64,000 nt of DNA from Candidatus Poribacteria bacterium (GTDB taxonomy: Bacteria; Poribacteria; WGA-4E; WGA-3G), in contig CBDBFU010000014.1 in NCBI GenBank assembly GCA_965205025.1, positions 1 through 64,000 on the forward strand, read 5' to 3'. The notes under the pieces were generated by a model, which was not told the origin of the DNA, ran no database searches, and was given only the letters and a program-made list of their open reading frames with translations. The position numbers were made by a program, and so were the translations under genes. Shown here one piece after another: positions 18,865-47,793 of this stretch (its first letter is position 1; each line of letters opens with the position of its first letter).

Positions 18865-21735
18865 ATGAGAGGAAACATGAAAAGCCTTTCTATGTTGTTA
18901 TTGCTTGGGTTAGGGCTAATCGTCACTTTTAGTGTTGTAGCTCAAGTAAAAGATAATGAAGGAACAGTCAAAATTACTGGTATTGTAATGGATGGTGAGA
19001 CAGAACTCCCGATACCAGATGTCACAATAAAAATTGTAGATACGGATATTTCAGCTAAGAGTGATGAAAATGGTGAGTTTTCTATAGAATTACCTGCAGA
19101 CACTTATACAATGCAGGTTTCTGCCCCTTTCTACAAAGCATCAAAACTTTCTGACTTTAAAGTCACAATTGAAGGGAATGCGGATGGATTAAGGGTTATT
19201 CTTGAACCACAAGTTGTGAAATTAGATGCGATCAATATGAGGGTTCGATTAAGCCAATCAGGAGAACGGGGTTTACTTGAAAGACGTATGCGGAGTTCGC
19301 GGATTGCAGACAGTATTAGTACGGAGGAAATAAGTAGATTGCCTGATTCCTCCGCAGCACAAGCCATCAAACGTGTGACAGGAGTGAGTATTGTTGGTGG
19401 TAAGTATGTGTTTGTACGGGGTTTAGGAGAACGTTATAGCAATACACTTCTAAACAATGTTGAGATACCAAGTCCTGAACCGAATCGTAGAGTTGTTCCG
19501 ATGGATATATTTCCAGCAAGTTTATTGGCAAGTCTACAGACTGTTAAGACCTTTTCACCTGACCAACCGGGAGGATTCGCTGGTGGTTCCGTCCAGGTAT
19601 TTACCAAAGATTTTCCAGAAGCGTTGATGATGTCTCTTTCTCTATCCACGGGATATAATACCCAAACAACAGGGGTGGATGGATTGACGTATCCTGGGGG
19701 TAGTCTGGATTTCTTAGGTTTTGACGATGGAACACGTGAATTACCTGAGTTGATTCAAGTTAAAGCGGACGAAATTCCGATTCGTGAACGTGGTCGTTTT
19801 TCCAAGTTCGGTTTTACTCCAACCGAGATCCAAGAGTTTGGTCGTGAATTCTCAAATATATGGTCTCCTGAACGGCAATCAATTCCGATCAATCAAGGTT
19901 ATAAATTCAGTCTTGGTAATAGTAGTAAACTTTTTGGTAAGCAATTCGGTTATCTCGGTGTCATCTCTTACGGAAATAGTCATTCCTATAACACCCAAGT
20001 TCGTAAAGATTTCCGCATAGGATTGAACGAGACGCTTTCCCCTGTTACAGACTATAGCATTGAACAGAGTGGAAATGAAGTTGATTGGGGGAGTGTCCTA
20101 AATGCCAGTTTACGTTTTTCACCAAAACACCTTATTAGTTTACGTACCCTTGCAACGCATGCTGCAGAAGATCAGACACGTACGTGGGAAGGATTTAATT
20201 CGGATAGAAATACGGATTTACGAAGTGCGCGTCTCCGATATGTTGAACGACAACTTTTTTCAGGACAATTAGCGGGTTATCATGGATTCGATTTTGGTGA
20301 ACCGGAACTGACGGGTACACCTGTAGAAGATAACACCGAATCTGTGGATATTATAGAAGAACGATCAGATTTATCTATGGAGTGGCGTTTGACTTATTCC
20401 CGTGCTGCACGTGATGAACCCGATACACGGGAAACAATCTATGAAGATAGAGGGGATGGAACCTATACATTCAGAGATGTTACGCATAGTGGTAGTCGGT
20501 TTTTCTTTGATCTTGAGGATGATGAATATAATGCCCGCGTAGATTTTTCGATGCCAGTCAAGAAAACAGGTTCCGTAAAATTGGGAGGTTTACTTCGTGA
20601 TAGAGCACGTACATTTGATGCACGTCGCTTCAGATTCTTACCGTCAGATAATGTTGATTCAACAGTTGATTTATCATCATCACCAGAGACACTTTTCAAT
20701 TCAGACAACATTGTTCCCCGTGTATTTGAGTTAAGAGAATCTACCTTGGCTACAGATAATTACCTTGCTGATCACAATATATACTCTGGTTACCTTATGT
20801 TTGATGTGCCTTTTGGTTTAAAATGGCAATTGATGACAGGTTTAAGGTTAGAATCTTCGAATCAAGTTGTTACCACCTACGATCCTTTTTCTCCGGTGTT
20901 GACACCCATTTTGTCTGATTTGGAAACCCTTGATCTGCTCCCGGGTGTGAATCTTACTTACCGTCTTACTGAAAGAATGAATTTGCGTTTTGCTGTTTCA
21001 CGTACAGTAACACGTCCCGATTTTCGTGAACTTGCGCCATTTGAATTTACCGACTTTGTTGGTGGAAGAACGATTTTGGGAAATCCTGATTTGGAGAGGA
21101 CTCTGATCAACAATTTCGATTTCCGATGGGAGGTATTCCCGAATACAGGTGGTGGTGTATTTGCTATTAGTGCCTTTTATAAAGGTTTTCAAAAACCGAT
21201 AGAACAGATTATTCAACCGCAGGCTGAAGTGCGGATAACATACGAAAATGCAGAAGCTGCGAATAACTATGGAATAGAATTTGAAGCGCGGCAGAATTTG
21301 AGCATTATCTCACCCAAATTGAAGACGTTTTCAATCAATACAAACGCAGCCTTCATTTCTTCCAGAGTTGTTCTCCCTGATGATGTAGGTATTCAAACAT
21401 CTTCAGAACGTGCTTTACAGGGACAGTGTCCATATATCATAAATTTATCTATCGGGTATGATAACCCGAACTGGGATATAGCAAGTTCTGTTGCCTATAA
21501 CATATATGGACGCCGACTTTCTGATGTAGGAAATCATGGTGCCCCAGATGTGTTTGAACAACCACGTGGAGAATTAGATTTAAGTTTCAGTCGGAAAGTG
21601 GCAGGGGCATACAAATTTAGTTTTTCAGCCAAGAATTTACTTGATCCAGAGGTGGCATTCGAACAAGGTGATGAATCTTCGGTAAGTTATAAAATGGGTA
21701 GATCCTTCTCATTTGGGATCAGTTATGACCTTTAG
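18865..21735 (+). CDS. TonB-dependent receptor with N-terminal carboxypeptidase-regulatory-like domain
   Basis: Signal peptide; plug (AIKRVTGVS, VFVRGLGERYS); barrel motifs RPDFRELAPF and GNPDL; C-terminal FGISYDL. Confidence 0.95.
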   Translation: MRGNMKSLSMLLLLGLGLIVTFSVVAQVKDNEGTVKITGIVMDGETELPIPDVTIKIVDTDISAKSDENGEFSIELPADTYTMQVSAPFYKASKLSDFKVTIEGNADGLRVILEPQVVKLDAINMRVRLSQSGERGLLERRMRSSRIADSISTEEISRLPDSSAAQAIKRVTGVSIVGGKYVFVRGLGERYSNTLLNNVEIPSPEPNRRVVPMDIFPASLLASLQTVKTFSPDQPGGFAGGSVQVFTKDFPEALMMSLSLSTGYNTQTTGVDGLTYPGGSLDFLGFDDGTRELPELIQVKADEIPIRERGRFSKFGFTPTEIQEFGREFSNIWSPERQSIPINQGYKFSLGNSSKLFGKQFGYLGVISYGNSHSYNTQVRKDFRIGLNETLSPVTDYSIEQSGNEVDWGSVLNASLRFSPKHLISLRTLATHAAEDQTRTWEGFNSDRNTDLRSARLRYVERQLFSGQLAGYHGFDFGEPELTGTPVEDNTESVDIIEERSDLSMEWRLTYSRAARDEPDTRETIYEDRGDGTYTFRDVTHSGSRFFFDLEDDEYNARVDFSMPVKKTGSVKLGGLLRDRARTFDARRFRFLPSDNVDSTVDLSSSPETLFNSDNIVPRVFELRESTLATDNYLADHNIYSGYLMFDVPFGLKWQLMTGLRLESSNQVVTTYDPFSPVLTPILSDLETLDLLPGVNLTYRLTERMNLRFAVSRTVTRPDFRELAPFEFTDFVGGRTILGNPDLERTLINNFDFRWEVFPNTGGGVFAISAFYKGFQKPIEQIIQPQAEVRITYENAEAANNYGIEFEARQNLSIISPKLKTFSINTNAAFISSRVVLPDDVGIQTSSERALQGQCPYIINLSIGYDNPNWDIASSVAYNIYGRRLSDVGNHGAPDVFEQPRGELDLSFSRKVAGAYKFSFSAKNLLDPEVAFEQGDESSVSYKMGRSFSFGISYDL

Positions 21736-39747: not shown

Positions 39748-39776
39748 TTGCTTAAAATAAATGTCTGAAGTATAAT
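39748..39776 (+). promoter_or_regulatory. Sigma-70-type promoter for the riboswitch leader
   Basis: TTGCTT-17 nt-TATAAT about 25 nt upstream of the aptamer. Confidence 0.65.
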
Positions 39777-39800
39777 ATAGACGTTACAACATAATATATA

Positions 39801-39973
39801 CGGTTCAGGTGCCGAAGTACGGAGAATAGGGAAGCGCGGTGAGAATCCGCCACGGCCCCGCCACTGTGAACGATTATTACCTATGTCAGGTAATTCCACT
39901 GAATATACCACTGTCAACGGTTGATGGGAAGGTACAGCGGAAAGATCGTAAGTCAGGAGACCTGCCTGGATCG
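39801..39973 (+). ncRNA. Cobalamin riboswitch
   Basis: AGGTGCC...AATAGGGAAGCGCGGTGAGAATCCGCCACGGCCCCGCCACTGTGA...CCACTG...GGGAAGGT...AAGTCAGGAGACCTGCCTG (B12 box); P1 CGGTTCAGG/CCTGGATCG. Confidence 0.93.
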
Positions 39974-40098
39974 AGTTTCACGAATCTGCTTTCGCGGGAA
40001 AGCGGTGGAACAGATGCACATCAGTATCCTCTGGTAAATAAAGAATACAAGTATATTCAGGATTTCCGGATTCAAAAGACACAGATTGTCGCCTTTGT

Positions 40099-40134
40099 CC
40101 CCTGTCTTTCAGTGAAAGCAGGGGTTTCTTTTTT
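40099..40134 (+). terminator. Riboswitch expression-platform terminator
   Basis: CCCCTG(T)CTTTC-AGT-GAAAGCAGGGG followed by TTTCTTTTTT; an upstream hairpin CTGCTTTCGCGGGAAAGCGG (39986-40005) could pair alternatively. Confidence 0.75.
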
Positions 40135-40150
40135 CATTACGGAGGTTTTA

Positions 40151-41449
40151 ATGAAAACAGGTTTTTTGTTTTGGCGACATTGTTTTTTCAACACTAACCA
40201 AAAATTACATTCGCTCGTAATCCTTGGAGCAATTTTACTTACACTCCTCGTTAGTTCCGCTATAGCACAGACAGAAGTCCAGAATATTGCTATTGCAGTA
40301 AATGCATTGGATAAAGACGATTGGGAGGTCACGTCTTCTCTTTCAATTATTGACCTTGATGACCCTGATCTAAAACGAGCAATTGACAAAGAGGTCATTT
40401 CTATAGGTGATGTTCCCACCAGTATACTTATTCATGGACATCTCGCCTATGTTTCACGTTTCGATTGGTTATCGGGGATGTTTAGCGATAACATTCTTAT
40501 TATCAATTTGGAACACAGAGAGATAATAGACACTATTCCTATTGCGTCAGGATCATACCCACAAAGTCTTGCACTCGTTAATTCCAATAAGATGTATGTT
40601 ACCTGTGATAATTCTCATGAGGTGCATGTAGTAAATATTGGATCCCGTAGGGTAACCAAGGTTATCACAGACTCATCCTTTAATAAAACCACTGGTCTTA
40701 CGATACTAAACGGGAAAGCGTATGCTACCAATCCTGCATGGGAATGGGATGCAGATGCAGGTAAATCTGTATATTATCAAAGTAGTGTTACAGTAATTGA
40801 TACACAAACAGATTCCGTCATTAAATCTATACCGATGCCAATAAATGCCGGTGGTATTCTCAATGATGGCGAATCTACTGTAATAGTTAAAACGACAGGT
40901 AATTACGGTGATATTTCGGGGAATCTTGTGTTAATTGATGCAACGATGGATGAAATCATCAAGACGATTGACCTGAAAATGACACCCGGATCATTTGCTA
41001 TTAATTCACAGAAGCAGATATACCTTCAAGGGGGATGGCCGAACCGAGGTCTACTCATCTACGATGTACCGAGTCAAATGTGGATTCGAGATAAGAATGA
41101 TAGACTCGAAGAGTTTGGTGGTGGATCTGGAATGACATTCGGTCCAGATGGCAATCTCTATATTACCAAGCCAGATTGGACTGGTCGTGGTTTGTCTACG
41201 ATGCTGGTGATGGGACCGGATGAGACACTCCTCAAGACTTATGAGCTTGGACACGGAACTGATAGGGTCGCACTAGCACAGATTATACCTCGAAATGAAG
41301 ATGTTAACGACGATGGTTTCGTTGACATCAAAGATCTGATAATTGTTGGTCAGTCTTTTGGACAACGAGGTCCAGCTATTGAGGGCGATATTAACATGGA
41401 TGGAGAGGTTAATATCTTAGACTTAGTTCTTGTGGTTCAGCACTTCTAA
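40151..41449 (+). CDS. Secreted YncE/BtuG-like beta-propeller with C-terminal dockerin-like (EF-hand) domain
   Basis: GGAGG RBS at 40141; signal peptide ending SSAIA; blades such as PQSLALVNSNKMYVT and SSVTVIDTQTDSVIKSI; DVNDDGFVDIKDL...GDINMDGEVNILDL. Confidence 0.85.
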   Translation: MKTGFLFWRHCFFNTNQKLHSLVILGAILLTLLVSSAIAQTEVQNIAIAVNALDKDDWEVTSSLSIIDLDDPDLKRAIDKEVISIGDVPTSILIHGHLAYVSRFDWLSGMFSDNILIINLEHREIIDTIPIASGSYPQSLALVNSNKMYVTCDNSHEVHVVNIGSRRVTKVITDSSFNKTTGLTILNGKAYATNPAWEWDADAGKSVYYQSSVTVIDTQTDSVIKSIPMPINAGGILNDGESTVIVKTTGNYGDISGNLVLIDATMDEIIKTIDLKMTPGSFAINSQKQIYLQGGWPNRGLLIYDVPSQMWIRDKNDRLEEFGGGSGMTFGPDGNLYITKPDWTGRGLSTMLVMGPDETLLKTYELGHGTDRVALAQIIPRNEDVNDDGFVDIKDLIIVGQSFGQRGPAIEGDINMDGEVNILDLVLVVQHF

Positions 41450-41658
41450 ACACTTACGTCTGGTGTGTAGAGAATGCAAAGATCCCTACTAATTCTATCT
41501 AATACCATATCCATAAATGTTTATCCCATGAATAGTTGTAAATCATGTCTTGAAATACCGCACACACTGAATGTTTATGCTACATTAAAGAGACTTTACT
41601 TATCAGAAATGGTATAACCTATAATTCACTTTCATCAATTGATGTAAAGGTTTCTATT

Positions 41659-43569
41659 ATGGAAAAATGGGGATTTTTGCTATTCCTACCAATACTATTT
41701 GTCGGTTGTACATCGGAACTCGTAAACCACTCTAATCTATGGCAAATTACATTTTCTCCACTCGGTGCCAATATTCAATTTACTGAAAATGCTCCGATTA
41801 AGAAGGTGTCTACCTACAATTCTGATGGGACAATGGTTGCTCAGATAAGTTTTCCATCACATCCTCGACAAATAGAATCTCTCTATTTTGAATGGAAAGA
41901 GGGGGAAAGTTATAGATTTGAAGCAACCTTGTCCACAGATCAGGTCAACGTTAAAACAGTGTCAACCCCACGTGACTTTTCTCAAGGTGATTTAGAAATA
42001 GCCATTCCTTACGGTACAAGAAATATCTCTACACAGCAATACTCGGTAGAAAGCAAGCAGAAAGCACTCCTTCTACAAGGTAGTGAGATGACAGTTACAA
42101 TCATCGTTAAAAACGGAAATTCCCCTGCTACATTCGACCTTGAATTATGTGTGCCAGAAACATTGGAAGTTATCCTTGCTCCAGAAAAATGGAATGCTGA
42201 AACAAAAGACGACCTAATCTGTTATTCAGTGAACGATTCACTTGCTGTTGCATTTGAGGTATGGCACCGTGATTTGGTTGTGAAGACACCAGAACTTTCA
42301 ATGGTTGAAATGGGGAAATTGGAAAATCAAGAAATATCTGCTGTTGTTCGGTTTACAACAGCAGATGGAAGGGAATGGGAGCAGAAGAGATCGGTACAAT
42401 TACATATAGCAACTGTCCCTGAAATCTCTCAATTTCTATCCATAGAATCTATAAAAATGCCAACAGATGCAGCGGGTAAAGTTGATGCCAAACAGCGAGA
42501 AGATTCTATTTACTATTCCCGTCCTTTGTTTGGTTGGCTTTCAACACTTCAAACTGATGAATATACCCCAATAAGTTATCAAACAGTCCATATCCGAAAT
42601 CAGATTGACGAGACAATTCATGTTGTTGTCACTTCAATAAACCGTGAAATAACAACTGGTGAAGCGGTTCGTTTTCTTGCTCCACCAGATGAAGTAAATG
42701 CTGGAACAGATCGTAGTGTTAGTTTCGCGAGTCTCGCACCGGGTGAACAGACTCCAATACCCTTGCCGATCTATTTTCATGGGCATTTAGCGAAAGCAGG
42801 TGAATATGAACGTGAGATAGCAGTTAAAATTTGGGGAAGTGATACAACTGTTCTCAGTGAAAAGAGAGCGCTACATATTATTGTTCCAAACCGACATGCC
42901 TTATTCGTGAGTGGATTGGCAATCCTTGCGAGTTCCATCGGTCTTGTAGTTTTACTAAGGTATCATAGACAATTTTTCACTCGTTTTACAACGAAGCAGT
43001 TAATTGTCATCGCTCTGTTCGGTACCACGATTTTTGTTGCAGTTGTTGTACCGTCTACACTTTTTCTGAATCTAAGCCGAGTTATTCTTGGACCTTTTTC
43101 TGGACTGTTAACCGGTCTTATTAATGAGACACTCTACTATGCCTTACTCACTGCATTGTTGATCTATATTTACGGTTCTCCTCATGATAAGTCAGAAAAA
43201 AATCTACAAGTATCTAACAAAGGAGGCGTAATCCTTCTCGTTTCTGCAGTACGATTACTACTCGGGGGTATTACATTCGGTCTGTTTACTCCGATGACGA
43301 TTATCTACACTGGGACAAGTGTTATTTTGTTAGAAATGGGTTTTTTCTTTGTTCGGAGACGCGGTTTACTGGTCTGGGCACTTGTTCTCGGAGTATGTGA
43401 TGCGATTGCAGTTTATGTAGATTTTCAACTTTCAATTCTGTTCTATCGGCTTTTTTTCGCATATTGGTATATTGTATTACGAATATTTATTGAAGGATTT
43501 GCTTATACATTCATCGGTGTATTACTGGGTGCAAAATTAGGAAAGGGTCTATGGAAAGTTGTAGATTAG
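41659..43569 (+). CDS. Lipoprotein-like extracellular domain fused to an ECF S-component-like membrane domain
   Basis: Lipobox FVGC; about 400-aa soluble region; then about 7 TM helices, including RFTTKQLIVIALFG and ending FIGVLLGAKLGKGL. Confidence 0.7.
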   Translation: MEKWGFLLFLPILFVGCTSELVNHSNLWQITFSPLGANIQFTENAPIKKVSTYNSDGTMVAQISFPSHPRQIESLYFEWKEGESYRFEATLSTDQVNVKTVSTPRDFSQGDLEIAIPYGTRNISTQQYSVESKQKALLLQGSEMTVTIIVKNGNSPATFDLELCVPETLEVILAPEKWNAETKDDLICYSVNDSLAVAFEVWHRDLVVKTPELSMVEMGKLENQEISAVVRFTTADGREWEQKRSVQLHIATVPEISQFLSIESIKMPTDAAGKVDAKQREDSIYYSRPLFGWLSTLQTDEYTPISYQTVHIRNQIDETIHVVVTSINREITTGEAVRFLAPPDEVNAGTDRSVSFASLAPGEQTPIPLPIYFHGHLAKAGEYEREIAVKIWGSDTTVLSEKRALHIIVPNRHALFVSGLAILASSIGLVVLLRYHRQFFTRFTTKQLIVIALFGTTIFVAVVVPSTLFLNLSRVILGPFSGLLTGLINETLYYALLTALLIYIYGSPHDKSEKNLQVSNKGGVILLVSAVRLLLGGITFGLFTPMTIIYTGTSVILLEMGFFFVRRRGLLVWALVLGVCDAIAVYVDFQLSILFYRLFFAYWYIVLRIFIEGFAYTFIGVLLGAKLGKGLWKVVD

Positions 43570-43759
43570 GTCAGAAGATATTAGAGCATATATCATAAAT
43601 CATATATTTTGAGGATTCTTCAATATTTCCATTTACTATATATTGAACAACGGACGGGAGATCCATCCTTACGTAGAGGAATTATGTCCATACGAACGAG
43701 TTGTATTTGTGAGATACACTGAATATACATCTGAAATTAATAATCATAAGGAAACAAAA

Positions 43760-45412
43760 ATGAAACTATTCAAAAAACTCAGTCTGATGTTATTACTAAT
43801 TATCTTACCCACCAGCATAGTCATGGCTGATTTTAATGTGGTTTGGGTTCGAACAGGAATTGTTCTTGAATCTGAGACGAAAGATGATTTTGAAACTAAT
43901 ATAAGGATTGAAGTTGGACAGCAAGATGATGCTTTTGAAACCGTTAAATCTATAAGACTTGATGATAAACGCATCTTATTACAATCAACATGGCAAGCAG
44001 GTAAAACATATACGATCCGCGTGGATAAAAATACAATTAAGGTTACATCACCACTAAAACCCCAACCTTATCTCATCCATACGATAGAGTTAGATGGATT
44101 ATTATCTTTGTTGGAAAACCTGCGACAACCCGCCAAACCCACTGCAATAGCATTTAGCAATAGAACAGATGAGTTAAAACTGGCTATTGCTACAGATAGA
44201 GGACATATCGCAATACTAAGATCTATAACTGGAGAAACTATATGGAAAACACGGATCTCTGAAGGATATGTTAGACAGATCACATTTAGTGCAGATGATT
44301 CGCTACTTTATGTTGGAGAACAGGCTACCGACGGTTTTGTCTATTGTTATGAATTGTCAAGTGATCCACCGAATCTTCGTTGGAAATATCGCACGGCAGA
44401 TGATATTGAAACATCTACTCCCACTGATCCTGATAGCGTATATGCTTGGGTCAGTTATCCCGGACAATCTTGCATGAAGGCATTGCCGAACGGGGATCTC
44501 TTAGTATCGGGTGTTCATTCCTGGACAAGAGAAGAAAAACCTGAAAAACGTTCTATACTCTATAGGTTTGATTCACAGACTGGTCAGGTGAAGTGGAAAT
44601 ATCCGAGTGAAGAACCGATACAGAAGATATATCGATGGTTTGATGTGAGTGAGGATGGAAAGACACTTGCACTTCTTACAGATGATAGTGGTAATGGAAA
44701 CGGGATGTTATCTGTTTTTGATGTTGAAACTGGCACTGAAAATTGGTCTTCAGAAGTTGAACCATTGACACCATATTTTAAAGGGGTAACTTTTTGGCGT
44801 GGGGTTAGTATGTCGCCTAATGGGAAGTCAATCAATGTGACAACCGATGATGGACGCGCCTTCATTTTTGATGTAGAAAAATCGGAACCAATATGGCAAG
44901 AGAAATTAGCTTCACCATTAGAGGTGAGTGGTGTCCCAATTATCGCTACAACTGGAACAATTGGATCAACGGACACACATGCTCTCTTTGTTACAGGAGA
45001 CACATATATACCATACCATCTTCAAAAAGGAGCACAACGTCCATCTACAATGCATCCTAATGGGATGACCTTATTTGCGTTTTCGTGGAGTGGTGAAAAG
45101 AAATGGCAGTGGAAGCTTGAGAATATGCCACAAGGATTACGAATTGATGGACAAAACCGTTATGCTGCATTAGGAGTCTCAAAACGGAGTAAGAATCCTA
45201 AGGAAAGTCTTCACGGTGTGTCGGTTTTTGATCTGTCTGCTGAAGGAAGTGGTTTATCAAAATATCTTTTTACCTATCGTACTGAAGGGCAACTTCCCTA
45301 TGATACACTTGCGATTAGTTCTGATGGTTCAGTTATTGCCATAGTAGAAATGCCGATTTCATTACCAGATGATACTCTACTTGGTAAAAATCAGGTTCAT
45401 CTGTTATATTAA
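43760..45412 (+). CDS. Secreted PQQ/BamB-like beta-propeller protein
   Basis: Signal peptide MKLFKKLSL...SIVMA; repeated TGxxxW blades (TGETIWK, TGQVKWKY, TGTENW, SGEKKWQW). Start moved to ATG 43760. Confidence 0.82.
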   Translation: MKLFKKLSLMLLLIILPTSIVMADFNVVWVRTGIVLESETKDDFETNIRIEVGQQDDAFETVKSIRLDDKRILLQSTWQAGKTYTIRVDKNTIKVTSPLKPQPYLIHTIELDGLLSLLENLRQPAKPTAIAFSNRTDELKLAIATDRGHIAILRSITGETIWKTRISEGYVRQITFSADDSLLYVGEQATDGFVYCYELSSDPPNLRWKYRTADDIETSTPTDPDSVYAWVSYPGQSCMKALPNGDLLVSGVHSWTREEKPEKRSILYRFDSQTGQVKWKYPSEEPIQKIYRWFDVSEDGKTLALLTDDSGNGNGMLSVFDVETGTENWSSEVEPLTPYFKGVTFWRGVSMSPNGKSINVTTDDGRAFIFDVEKSEPIWQEKLASPLEVSGVPIIATTGTIGSTDTHALFVTGDTYIPYHLQKGAQRPSTMHPNGMTLFAFSWSGEKKWQWKLENMPQGLRIDGQNRYAALGVSKRSKNPKESLHGVSVFDLSAEGSGLSKYLFTYRTEGQLPYDTLAISSDGSVIAIVEMPISLPDDTLLGKNQVHLLY

Positions 45413-45430: not shown

Positions 45431-45459
45431 TTGACAGATGCAGTTTCCAAAAGTATACT
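45431..45459 (+). promoter_or_regulatory. Sigma-70-type promoter
   Basis: TTGACA-17 nt-TATACT upstream of 45536. Confidence 0.65.
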
Positions 45460-45535: not shown

Positions 45536-46747
45536 ATGGAAATGCGGCATTTTACAGATGAAGAGTTATTGCAAATAATTGAAGATGATGAATCTGATCG
45601 TGTGGAGTTCAAGGAATCATTATCTGGTGATGCTCCTGAGAAAATTAGGATGGCTATCTGTGCATTTTCTAACGATCTTCCCAACCATGGGCAACCGGGT
45701 TTTATTTTTCTCGGTGTAAAACCCGACAGTACGATTGTTGGATTCCAGGTGACAGATGAATTACTCAGACGTTTAGGAGATATGAAAACAGATGGAAATA
45801 TTCTCCCTCCGCCATCACTGACTGTTGAAAAACGGGAATTACAGGAAAAAGAAATTGCTATTGTAAAAGTGGAACCCTCTAATTCTCCACCGGTAAGATT
45901 TAAAGGTGTCATCCATATCCGGACGGGTTCTCGTCAAGACATTGCAAATGCTCAAGATGAAAGAATACTCAATGAAAAACGTCGATACGGTGAACGGCCA
46001 TTTGACTTATACTCTATTCCATCTTCTATAATATCCGATCTAAATCTTCCATTATTTAATTACGAATATCTTCCTCAGTCTGTTTCTCAAGAAATCTTAG
46101 AACAGAATGAAAGAACTCTAAATGAGCAATTAGCAGCAACAAAGATGATAGCCTCCGTGGATGAACCTATACCTACAGTGCTTGGAATTTTGACACTTGG
46201 AAAGAGTCCACAAGATTTTCTACACGGTGCATATATCCAGTTCCTAAGAATTGATGGAAATGAACTAACAGATGAGATTATTGACAGTGAAGATATCAGA
46301 GGTGCAATTTCTGACCAGATACGTCGATTAGATGAGAAATTGATGGGGCATAATCGAGTTGCGGTTGATATTACTTCTGGTCCAGTTGAGAAGCGAACTG
46401 CCGATTATCCTTTAGAAGCACTGCAGCAGATTACTCGAAATGCTATTATGCACAGAACTTATGAAGGTACAAACGCACCTGTTCGGGTTAGTTGGTTTAA
46501 TAATAGAATAGAGGTGTTAAGTCCAGGTGGTCCTTACGGAACAATCTCAGCAGAGAACTTTGGGGAGTCAGGATTAGCAGAATACCGTAATCCAAATCTT
46601 GCTGAAGCTATGAGAACACTTGGTTATGTTCAACGTTTCGGTGTTGGTATATCCATAAGCAGAAGACTCCTTCAAACTGCAGGTCATCCAGAATTAGAGT
46701 TTGAAGTAATCACAAATTATGTTAGGGCAACTATATTGTCAACCTGA
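45536..46747 (+). CDS. Schlafen/AlbA_2 domain protein with HATPase-like (RecG C-terminal type) domain
   Basis: ESDRVEFKES, ICAFSN, GFIFLGV; ALQQITRNAIMHRTY, IEVLSPGG, YRNPNLAE, GYVQRFGVGI. Confidence 0.88.
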   Translation: MEMRHFTDEELLQIIEDDESDRVEFKESLSGDAPEKIRMAICAFSNDLPNHGQPGFIFLGVKPDSTIVGFQVTDELLRRLGDMKTDGNILPPPSLTVEKRELQEKEIAIVKVEPSNSPPVRFKGVIHIRTGSRQDIANAQDERILNEKRRYGERPFDLYSIPSSIISDLNLPLFNYEYLPQSVSQEILEQNERTLNEQLAATKMIASVDEPIPTVLGILTLGKSPQDFLHGAYIQFLRIDGNELTDEIIDSEDIRGAISDQIRRLDEKLMGHNRVAVDITSGPVEKRTADYPLEALQQITRNAIMHRTYEGTNAPVRVSWFNNRIEVLSPGGPYGTISAENFGESGLAEYRNPNLAEAMRTLGYVQRFGVGISISRRLLQTAGHPELEFEVITNYVRATILST

Positions 46748-46764
46748 ATTGGAGATTAATTGAA

Positions 46765-47793
46765 ATGTCTGTTCCAATATTAACATTCTTTAATAACAAA
46801 GGTGGCGTTGGTAAAACCTCTCTTGTCTATCATCTCGCCTGGATGTTCTATGATCTTGGGTATCGTGTCCTTGCATGTGACCTTGATCCTCAGGCAAATC
46901 TCACAAGTATGTTTTTACATGAGGAACGACTTGAAGTGTTATGGACTGAGGAGGGGGATAGAAAAACTATCTATAATGCACTACTACCCCTTTTAAATGG
47001 TACAGGGGACATTAAACATGCACATTTGGAAAATATTACTCATGGGGTATTCAGACAAGAGTTAAGTCTTATTGTTGGAGATCTTATGTTATCATCGGCA
47101 GAAGACGAACTCTCAAGACAATGGCCAGAATGCTTAGATCGACGAACTCGTGCTTTCCGTGTAATTTCAGCACTCTGGAGAATATTGCAAAATGCTGCAA
47201 ATGAACGAGATGTTGATATTATCTTGGTGGATGTAGGACCTAATTTAGGAGCACTGAATAGAGCTGTTTTAGTAGCTACAGACTATGTTATTGTACCACT
47301 TGGGGCAGACCTATTCTCTCTTCAAGGGTTAAGAAATCTTGGTCCTACATTACAGAATTGGCGTGATGGATGGAAAGATAGACGTAACCGAAATCCTGAT
47401 CCTGACTTACCTATGCCAGAAGGTAAAATTACACCAATTGGCTATGTCGTTCAACAGTATAGTGTCCGTTTGGACCGTCCAGTTTTGGCTTATGATAAAT
47501 GGGTTAATCGAATGCCAGCAGAATATTCTCGAAATCTATTAAGGGACAAAACTGGACCATATGCAAAAACACCTGAAGAAGATAAGAAGAACTCTCTTGG
47601 GACTGTCAAGCACTATAGAAGTCTCGTTCCAATGGCACAGGAAGCACGTAAACCTATTTTCCATTTAAAGCCAGTTGATGGGGCAATCGGAGCACATGCA
47701 AGTGCTGCCGAATCGGCATATCACGATTTCAAAATCTTAGCTGAGAAAGTAGTGAAAAGAATTGACATTAATACTACCATTTCACTTGAATAG
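46765..47793 (+). CDS. ParA/Soj-family ATPase (orphan, no ParB)
   Basis: FNNKGGVGKTS, DLDPQANLT, DVGPNLGALNRA. Confidence 0.9.
   Translation: MSVPILTFFNNKGGVGKTSLVYHLAWMFYDLGYRVLACDLDPQANLTSMFLHEERLEVLWTEEGDRKTIYNALLPLLNGTGDIKHAHLENITHGVFRQELSLIVGDLMLSSAEDELSRQWPECLDRRTRAFRVISALWRILQNAANERDVDIILVDVGPNLGALNRAVLVATDYVIVPLGADLFSLQGLRNLGPTLQNWRDGWKDRRNRNPDPDLPMPEGKITPIGYVVQQYSVRLDRPVLAYDKWVNRMPAEYSRNLLRDKTGPYAKTPEEDKKNSLGTVKHYRSLVPMAQEARKPIFHLKPVDGAIGAHASAAESAYHDFKILAEKVVKRIDINTTISLE

Follow-up and report, generated by a model that had tools for sequence, protein, structure and literature searches.

Few microbes make vitamin B12 (cobalamin) although many require it, and the way in which auxotrophs acquire it therefore shapes communities such as those of the sponge holobiont and the gut. 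ECF-CbrT of Lactobacillus delbrueckii, an energy-coupling factor (ECF) importer of cobalamin and cobinamide, has an S-component encoded apart from its motor, and the combination of a regulated S gene with a separately expressed motor characterizes group II ECF systems (PMC5997447). BtuM uses an S-component-like fold for B12 and is described as working without an ECF motor (PMC6072759). In Bacteroides, the lipoprotein BtuG caps the outer-membrane receptor BtuB within riboswitch-controlled B12 uptake loci (PMC6143338, PMC10404256). Here, we analyze a locus in a 64,000-nucleotide (nt) window, the whole stretch of DNA under study, which lies on contig C14 of a Candidatus Poribacteria genome (5.66 Mb, 33 contigs, 95.5% complete). 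In this locus a cobalamin riboswitch precedes three co-oriented genes, termed genes 1 to 3, that encode a secreted BtuG-like β-propeller with a dockerin, a lipobox-bearing protein with an S-component-like membrane domain, and a second secreted β-propeller. A preliminary description, made from the sequence of the window, had suggested a riboswitch-controlled cobamide-scavenging module with a giant S-component fusion; the fold of the membrane domain, the ECF operon context of its relatives and the riboswitch linkage in at least 123 of 138 genomes support this proposal, and we consider the system a likely B12-repressed importer of complete cobamides.

S-components normally have a mass of about 20–25 kDa and possess neither an extracytoplasmic domain nor a binding protein, a norm from which the gene 2 product departs: it has 636 amino acids (aa), its ectodomain takes up about 390 of them, and a propeller is predicted to be its partner. 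The similarities to ECF-CbrT, as far as PMC5997447 describes that system, are a B12-auxotrophic host, an S gene located away from the motor and beside B12-related genes, and the same proposed substrate and energizing principle, and the regulated S gene with a distant motor matches the group II pattern. CbrT differs in being a small stand-alone membrane protein from a Gram-positive organism, whereas the S-domain here is accompanied by a lipobox, about 390 extracytoplasmic residues, an extra transmembrane (TM) helix and a propeller partner in a diderm host. The BtuG–BtuB system shares with our locus a B12-riboswitch-controlled uptake setting, a protein homologous to gene 1 (BtuG1, BtuG2 and BtuG3) and the proposed capture role. 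Unlike BtuG, which is described as a lipoprotein capping BtuB (PMC6143338, PMC10404256), the gene 1 product combines an ordinary signal peptide with a dockerin, no btuB adjoins it, and it is proposed to feed an ECF transporter instead of BtuCD.

Gene 2 and its ECF context

The preliminary description had read a lipobox, about 400 soluble residues and about seven TM helices from the gene 2 translation, and all three were recovered here. The signal ends in LFVGC17, and Cys17 (window 41707–41709) is invariant in 22 of 22 Poribacteria homologues; β-strands span residues 29–408 and seven helices residues 412–635 of the structure model. The protein can thus be divided into an immunoglobulin (Ig)-like β-sandwich ectodomain (aa 18–410), an extra helix termed TM0 (aa 412–434, from nt 42892) and a six-helix domain (aa 445–635). 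Because TM0 is predicted to return the chain to the cytoplasm (RYHRQFFTRFTTKQ), the six-helix domain would begin and end inside the cell. Known S-components likewise begin and end there.

The gene 2 protein had no match in Pfam or NCBIfam, and a phmmer search against the PDB returned only noise. A full-length AlphaFold model based on 22 close homologues, which are named Candidatus Poribacteria, reached a predicted local distance difference test score (pLDDT) of 64 overall with a poor membrane part, and Foldseek searches with it retrieved only generic Ig-like repeats such as integrin legs, pilins and adhesin Ig domains. Modelling the TM domain (residues 407–636) alone with a 132-sequence alignment yielded a pLDDT of 93.3 and a predicted template modelling score of 0.88, the helical segments after the one additional helix being compatible with six TM helices. 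The resemblance to an S-component that had been noted from the sequence was borne out by Foldseek, where the sole match with probability 1.00 was 5edl, annotated as ‘S-component of ECF transporter’ and aligned over 199 columns; the remaining rows among the 50 best had probabilities of at most 0.41, and no CbrT or BtuM structure was among these 50. We take 5edl to be YkoE, the thiamine-precursor S-component of the YkoEDC system and a solved member of PF09819 (ABC_cobalt, an S-component family). This family was weakly matched by 2 of 79 full-length gene 2 members and by three of ten TM domains searched in isolation (E 6e-4 to 4e-3), the latter colinearly over profile positions 2–105 of 121, and no other S family appeared among the ten isolated domains in Pfam. 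YkoE-type systems are therefore the best fold match, and they share with distant gene 2 relatives an operon of S-component, fused double ATPase and T-component. They differ in that YkoE lacks an ectodomain and that the family matches stay below the Pfam cut-off; the YkoE cargo is a thiamine precursor and not B12.

Within the protein, conservation is highest in the TM domain, where G541, E559, R597 and W603 are invariant in 158 of 158 sequences. At the position of C580 (window 43396–43398; motif GxCDA), 17 of the 158 members carry Cys and 102 carry Ala, and Cys was found in four of the five riboswitch-linked metagenome loci; it is a speculative guess that C580, which is conserved in the Poribacteria proteins, might serve as a cobalt ligand like the cobalt-ligating cysteine of BtuM. 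Among the candidates scored, the gene 2 family forms 441 clusters at 90% identity; at 50% identity it has 374 representatives (E up to 0.001), which share the last β-sandwich and the helical domain as their core. Dalk_4067 of Desulfatibacillum aliphaticivorans is a member. A search for stand-alone short relatives of the TM domain gave 28 matches that resembled fragments or mis-started Poribacteria genes, and the best ESM Atlas score, 0.76, was too low to count as a lead.

The strongest evidence for the identity of gene 2 comes from its gene context. We fetched 80 metagenome loci with a distant-member alignment and clustered their open reading frames (ORFs); many of these loci are truncated. 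Typically, the gene after gene 2 encodes a product of roughly 550 aa that contains two ABC_tran domains, and a gene for a CbiQ/EcfT protein of some 290 aa comes next. In 20 of the 37 loci with at least 2.6 kb of downstream sequence, the fused double ATPase directly follows gene 2 and EcfT is also present, and EcfT lies within three genes of gene 2 in 26 of these 37. Where a gene 2 ORF was called (66 loci), the next gene encodes the ATPase in 30 cases and EcfT in 10. The neighborhood survey thus places homologues beside a fused EcfAA′ and EcfT in distant relatives and, as detailed below, beside B12 riboswitches in the phylum. Since the 5edl fold match, the weak PF09819 matches and the downstream ATPase and EcfT genes all point in the same direction, we regard gene 2 with high confidence as a variant ECF S-component. 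Two loci on contigs titled human-gut metagenome (L147 and L155) carry Peripla_BP_2, a TonB-dependent receptor, gene 2, the fused ATPase, EcfT, a gene 3-like propeller and an ABC exporter; no cobalamin riboswitch was found in either.

The genome that contains the window encodes a corresponding motor at other sites. A single CbiQ/EcfT gene (C12:13558-14424) stands alone between unrelated genes, and a single fused double ATPase (C12:446688-448211) lies 433 kb from it on the same contig. This ATPase shares 40% identity over 532 aa with the gene-2-linked ATPases (401 bits, against 147 bits for the next best ATP-binding cassette (ABC) ATPase of the genome) and begins 16 nt after a gene with B12-binding (PF02310), Radical_SAM (PF04055) and DUF4070 domains, the pair occupying C12:444676-448211. 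The fused ATPase was found in all 41 genomes surveyed in the order; a radical-SAM gene lies directly upstream in 23 of 30 fetched loci of the order, the seven loci without it all belonging to family f4, and EcfT occurs within the 1.5-kb downstream flank in 17 of the 30. The usual Poribacteria layout is a B12-dependent enzyme gene followed by EcfAA′ and EcfT, with the S gene elsewhere behind a riboswitch; in the present genome, EcfT has been displaced from this arrangement. Family searches of the genome found no BioY, RibU-type, ECF_trnsprt, CbiM or PF09819 S-component, which leaves gene 2 as the only candidate partner for this ECF motor. Over 150 other genomes of the phylum, EcfT and gene 2 occur in 138 and 137 of the 139 genomes of families f1–f4, respectively, and in one (a weak, 25%-identical match) and none of the 11 genomes of families f5–f9.

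A solitary transporter like BtuM, the comparison drawn in the preliminary description, was rejected on these grounds. BtuM is alike in using an S-component-like fold for B12 but is described as independent of an ECF motor (PMC6072759), whereas a cognate EcfT and fused ATPase are encoded elsewhere in this genome, with EcfT in 138 of 139 f1–f4 genomes and the ATPase throughout the order. In two genomes of the same genus, the orthologues of the ECF ATPase (G005:C81:6793-8313 and G012:C19:51463-52983) each contain one in-frame TAG.

B12 riboswitch and propeller partners

The cobalamin riboswitch matches the Rfam model RF00174 over all its positions (1–189 of 189) at 104.3 bits, well above the gathering score (31.5; E 4.9e-25), and was the sole match in a scan of the whole genome. 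Downstream of the aptamer, a hairpin at 40099–40124 (-15.3 kcal/mol, z -3.27, equalled by 1 of 200 shuffles) is followed by UUUCUUUUUUC, and a GGAGG and the ATG of gene 1 lie 3′ of the U-run. Placed between aptamer and ribosome-binding site, this terminator forms an expression platform that, judging from the sequence, could switch gene 1. Riboswitch, terminator and the three co-oriented envelope genes that had been reported are thus all present. For the promoter that had been named with them the picture is mixed: a perfect TATAAT (39771–39776) lies 17 nt after TTGCTT (39748–39753) and ends 13 nt before the riboswitch, but a consensus promoter scan did not list the site, whose -35 element has only three of six matches, and we treat it as putative.

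Across the phylum, a cobalamin riboswitch was found in 147 of 151 sampled genomes, mostly exactly one per genome, and a gene 2 homologue in 138 of 151. In at least 123 of these 138, the riboswitch lies on the gene 2 strand no more than 10 kb upstream of gene 2, usually at a distance of 1.5–1.9 kb that corresponds to the length of gene 1. Twelve of the 138 genomes had no usable riboswitch position, mostly because positions come from 150 of 163 matches (G107 had no match at all), and in three genomes (G093, G140 at 17.7 kb, and G081) the riboswitch is not linked to gene 2. Genus g7 (four genomes) has a riboswitch 169–409 nt before gene 2. One of them, G007, has gene 3 after gene 2 and a gene 1 homologue at another site behind a second riboswitch (L167:911-4208); this homologue carries an FlgD_ig domain in addition to the dockerin, and the gene after it encodes a cohesin-domain protein of 349 aa, its likely docking partner. 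Since gene 1 and genes 2–3 are thus separated in g7, each behind a riboswitch of its own, both units appear to be B12-regulated in their own right. An earlier caveat, that the gaps between the genes might give genes 2 and 3 promoters of their own, is thereby answered in part.

Among 47 distant metagenome loci scanned, five contain a cobalamin riboswitch. Two of these are Poribacteria-like (L098 and L101), two carry a 37–38%-identical gene 1 (L106 and L108), and in L125 the riboswitch is followed by a TonB-dependent receptor, gene 2 and the ATPase, with no gene 1. A queG-like gene lies just upstream of the riboswitch in L106 (L106:1609-2793) and L108 (L108:2176-3360), the L108 ORF having QueG_DUF1730 and Fer4_16 domains and the L106 ORF falling into its cluster. 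QueG is a B12-dependent enzyme.

In gene 1, Pfam identified Dockerin_1 (E 2.3e-5) and, below threshold, DUF5074 (4.1e-4). A profile of 18 gene 1 homologues searched against the PDB matched 8blw_B over positions 86–335 (1.1e-15), as well as 8okv (4.1e-10), 3dsm (6.9e-10) and 8bmx (9.1e-10). 8BLW is the BtuB1G1 complex, and 8BMX and 8OKV are BtuG2 and BtuG3 with cyanocobalamin, respectively (PMC10404256); 3DSM is BtuG2, and BtuG homologues were called exclusive to Bacteroidetes in the same report (PMC6143338). The original label of a propeller with a dockerin therefore stands, with the correction that the propeller is homologous to the B12 binder BtuG. On this homology, binding of B12 by gene 1 is somewhat favored over its absence. 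The signal peptide contains no lipobox cysteine, no TonB-dependent receptor gene adjoins gene 1, and the genome has 16 cohesin matches; gene 1 would thus be a B12 catcher that may be held on the cell by cohesin–dockerin binding.

Gene 3 matches PQQ_2 in Pfam (E 2e-9), its Pfam and NCBIfam matches being confined to generic repeats of the WD40, PQQ or BamB type, and a gene 3 family profile searched against the PDB retrieved designer and generic WD40/PQQ propellers but no specific family. The earlier designation as a PQQ propeller is correct as to the repeat and generic as a label; the more informative property is the conserved association with gene 2. Of 80 Poribacteria loci, 78 have gene 3 on the downstream side of gene 2, which makes gene 3 the most faithful neighbor of gene 2, and a homologue on the same strand occurs in 46 of the 80 metagenome loci, many of them truncated. 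A complex prediction, which had been proposed for the three proteins, was run for the gene 2 ectodomain (residues 18–410) with mature gene 3 in three runs with three controls. The interface score ipSAE was 0.85, 0.86 and 0.84, with 0.00 for the best control, and reached a mark attained by 58 of the 80 solved complexes and by 2 of the 110 mismatched pairs used for calibration, counts that apply only roughly here as the alignments were our own. At least 60% of the contacts agreed between runs, and the partner pLDDT was at least 84. The predicted interface joins gene 2 residues 56–78, which include the Poribacteria-invariant A61, F65, P66, P69, R70, E73 and F77, to gene 3 residues 96–103 and 496–510. 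We therefore consider it probable, from the model, that gene 3 binds the gene 2 ectodomain.

Proposed import route and alternative readings

Taken together, these data suggest the following route. At low B12, the riboswitch would let transcription pass the terminator into the three genes, for which we infer co-transcription. Outside the cell, the secreted gene 1 propeller would capture cobamide, and its dockerin could plug into one of the many cohesin proteins of the genome, so that the catcher is retained at the surface. After crossing the outer membrane, the cobamide would be received by the gene 3 propeller and the Ig-like stalk of gene 2; periplasmic gene 3 would bind the gene 2 ectodomain and probably hand over or hold the cargo. 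The S-domain of gene 2, with its lipid-anchored ectodomain joined via the extra TM helix, would then carry the cobamide across the inner membrane, driven by the fused EcfA–A′ ATPase and EcfT encoded elsewhere. Substrate, order of hand-over and cohesin docking are the steps of this scheme that we infer. As for the cargo, CbiC, CobD/CbiB and CobS were not found in the 95.5%-complete genome, while six B12-binding domains were recognized, four of them above the Pfam cut-off and two below it; the genome thus appears unable to make or finish corrinoids yet needs them, and the cargo is likely, on sequence grounds, a complete cobamide and not cobalt.

Generalized to the family, the locus may represent a class of ECF importers with extracytoplasmic helpers, in which a lipid-anchored Ig stalk docks a propeller and, in Poribacteria, a surface-tethered BtuG-like catcher feeds the system. 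We put this forward tentatively, at slightly less than even odds. Ectodomain, extra helix, lipid anchor and dedicated soluble partner are the departures from known ECF transporters, and in our literature search, which covered papers outside subscription journals and without their supplements, neither an S-component of this kind nor the Poribacteria locus was found to be described.

Several observations weigh against a B12 importer built on an S-component. A profile of 93 gene 2 sequences found no S-component in the PDB by sequence, the 5edl match has an E-value of only 1.4e-2 and template modelling scores of 0.45/0.51 in Foldseek, every PF09819 match is below the gathering score, and the gene 2 protein of the window itself has no PF09819 match even at E 10. 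The shared distribution of EcfT and gene 2 comes from related genomes and amounts to one evolutionary event, not many. For gene 1, the top PDB match of the profile is the generic YVTN propeller 1l0q (2.6e-20), and the similarity to BtuG may partly reflect the type of repeat. The genome also encodes a FecCD-type permease beside two TonB-dependent receptors (C4:42903-56826) without a riboswitch, which may be a siderophore, heme or conventional BtuCD-like route. Finally, the gaps of 209 nt (genes 1 and 2) and 190 nt (genes 2 and 3) could hold promoters, and a majority of distant loci lack the riboswitch.

The last two points are central to an alternative that we regard as unlikely, namely that the riboswitch controls gene 1 only and that genes 2 and 3 form a separately transcribed ECF module for other cargo, such as heme, a different tetrapyrrole or an unknown micronutrient. 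Of the 47 distant loci scanned, 42 yielded no cobalamin riboswitch, so that the wider family is not uniformly B12-regulated and may carry other cargo. Gene 1 homologues occur in only 7 of the 80 metagenome loci, and four of the five riboswitch-bearing loci are among those seven. Distant loci often contain CobN-like and ChlI-like chelatases, TonB-dependent receptors and Peripla_BP_2, which would also fit the uptake of a metal or another tetrapyrrole; those without a riboswitch also often carry ABC-exporter genes. A heme-specific ECF transporter has been published (PMC7299338). This separation is countered by the four g7 genomes, in which the riboswitch directly precedes gene 2 while G007 keeps gene 1 elsewhere under a second riboswitch, and by L125, where a TonB-dependent receptor, gene 2 and the ATPase come after the riboswitch and gene 1 is missing. 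In addition, no terminator was predicted in either gap, and in 23 of 30 loci the gene ahead of the ECF motor encodes a B12-dependent radical-SAM enzyme.

Import of cobalt or nickel by a B12-repressed system like CbiMNQO, supplying metal for corrin synthesis, is less likely still. B12 riboswitches are known to control cobalt transporters, the sole Pfam family touched by gene 2 is PF09819, which bears the name ‘ABC-type cobalt transport system’, and CobN-type chelatase genes occur in 11 of 66 distant loci. With CbiC, CobD/CbiB and CobS not found, there would be no pathway to feed with cobalt, however, and gene 1 is homologous to a cobalamin-binding protein; the family name is historical, and 5edl is presumably the thiamine-precursor protein YkoE. 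A surface or adhesion structure without a transport role, whose helical domain is a mere membrane anchor, would account for an ectodomain that resembles integrin legs, pilins and adhesin Ig domains and for a dockerin in a genome with 16 cohesin matches. We consider it the least probable of the three and quite improbable, as the membrane domain with its four invariant residues is the most conserved part of gene 2, distant relatives have gene 2 directly before ECF ATPase and EcfT genes, and riboswitch control suggests a B12-related function.

If the cobamide importer reading holds, the locus would give Poribacteria, abundant sponge symbionts, a defined route of B12 import, and it is the only locus under riboswitch control in almost all of the genomes sampled. 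Gene 2 would point to a large family of transporters that lacks annotation and whose S-component acquired an ectodomain together with a partner propeller, raising the mechanistic question of how a tethered S-component topples in the membrane. The rule that ECF transporters need no binding protein would then have a widespread exception (374 clusters at 50% identity, including human-gut-titled contigs), and BtuG-type B12 capture would extend beyond Bacteroidetes and be linked to cohesin–dockerin anchoring.

Locus layout and neighboring genes

The features of the locus are collected in Table 1. For gene 1, the ATG listed is the most likely start, since the alternative GTG at 39839 lies inside the riboswitch; for gene 3, the listed ATG, which opens a signal peptide (MKLFKKLSLM...), is most likely preferred to a TTG at 43643.

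Table 1. Window coordinates of the regulatory elements and genes of the locus.
Feature	Coordinates	Strand	Basis
Promoter-like site, TTGCTT-17 nt-TATAAT (putative)	39748..39776	+	read from sequence
Cobalamin riboswitch aptamer (RF00174)	39790..39983	+	Rfam covariance-model match
Intrinsic terminator, expression platform	40099..40135	+	stem 40099-40124, U-run 40125-40135
Gene 1, secreted YncE/BtuG-like β-propeller with C-terminal type I dockerin, 432 aa	40151..41449	+	Pfam, profile search
Gene 2, lipobox, Ig-like ectodomain, TM0 and six-helix candidate ECF S-component domain, 636 aa	41659..43569	+	structure model, gene context
Gene 3, secreted WD40/PQQ-like β-propeller, 550 aa, conserved partner of gene 2	43760..45412	+	PQQ_2, synteny

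Parts of both intergenic gaps were folded and showed no unusual structure (z 0.46 and -0.02). In agreement with what had been reported, the ORF list contains no btuB, btuCDF or ecfA/ecfT gene adjoining the three genes; the nearest TonB-dependent receptor gene lies at 20467-21639 (+), about 18 kb upstream of the riboswitch. Directly 3′ of gene 3, a strong promoter-like site (11 of 12 matches) is located at 45431-45459, and the region 45536-47793 (+) comprises an ORF of 403 aa followed by one of 342 aa that opens with a P-loop motif (NKGGVGKT).

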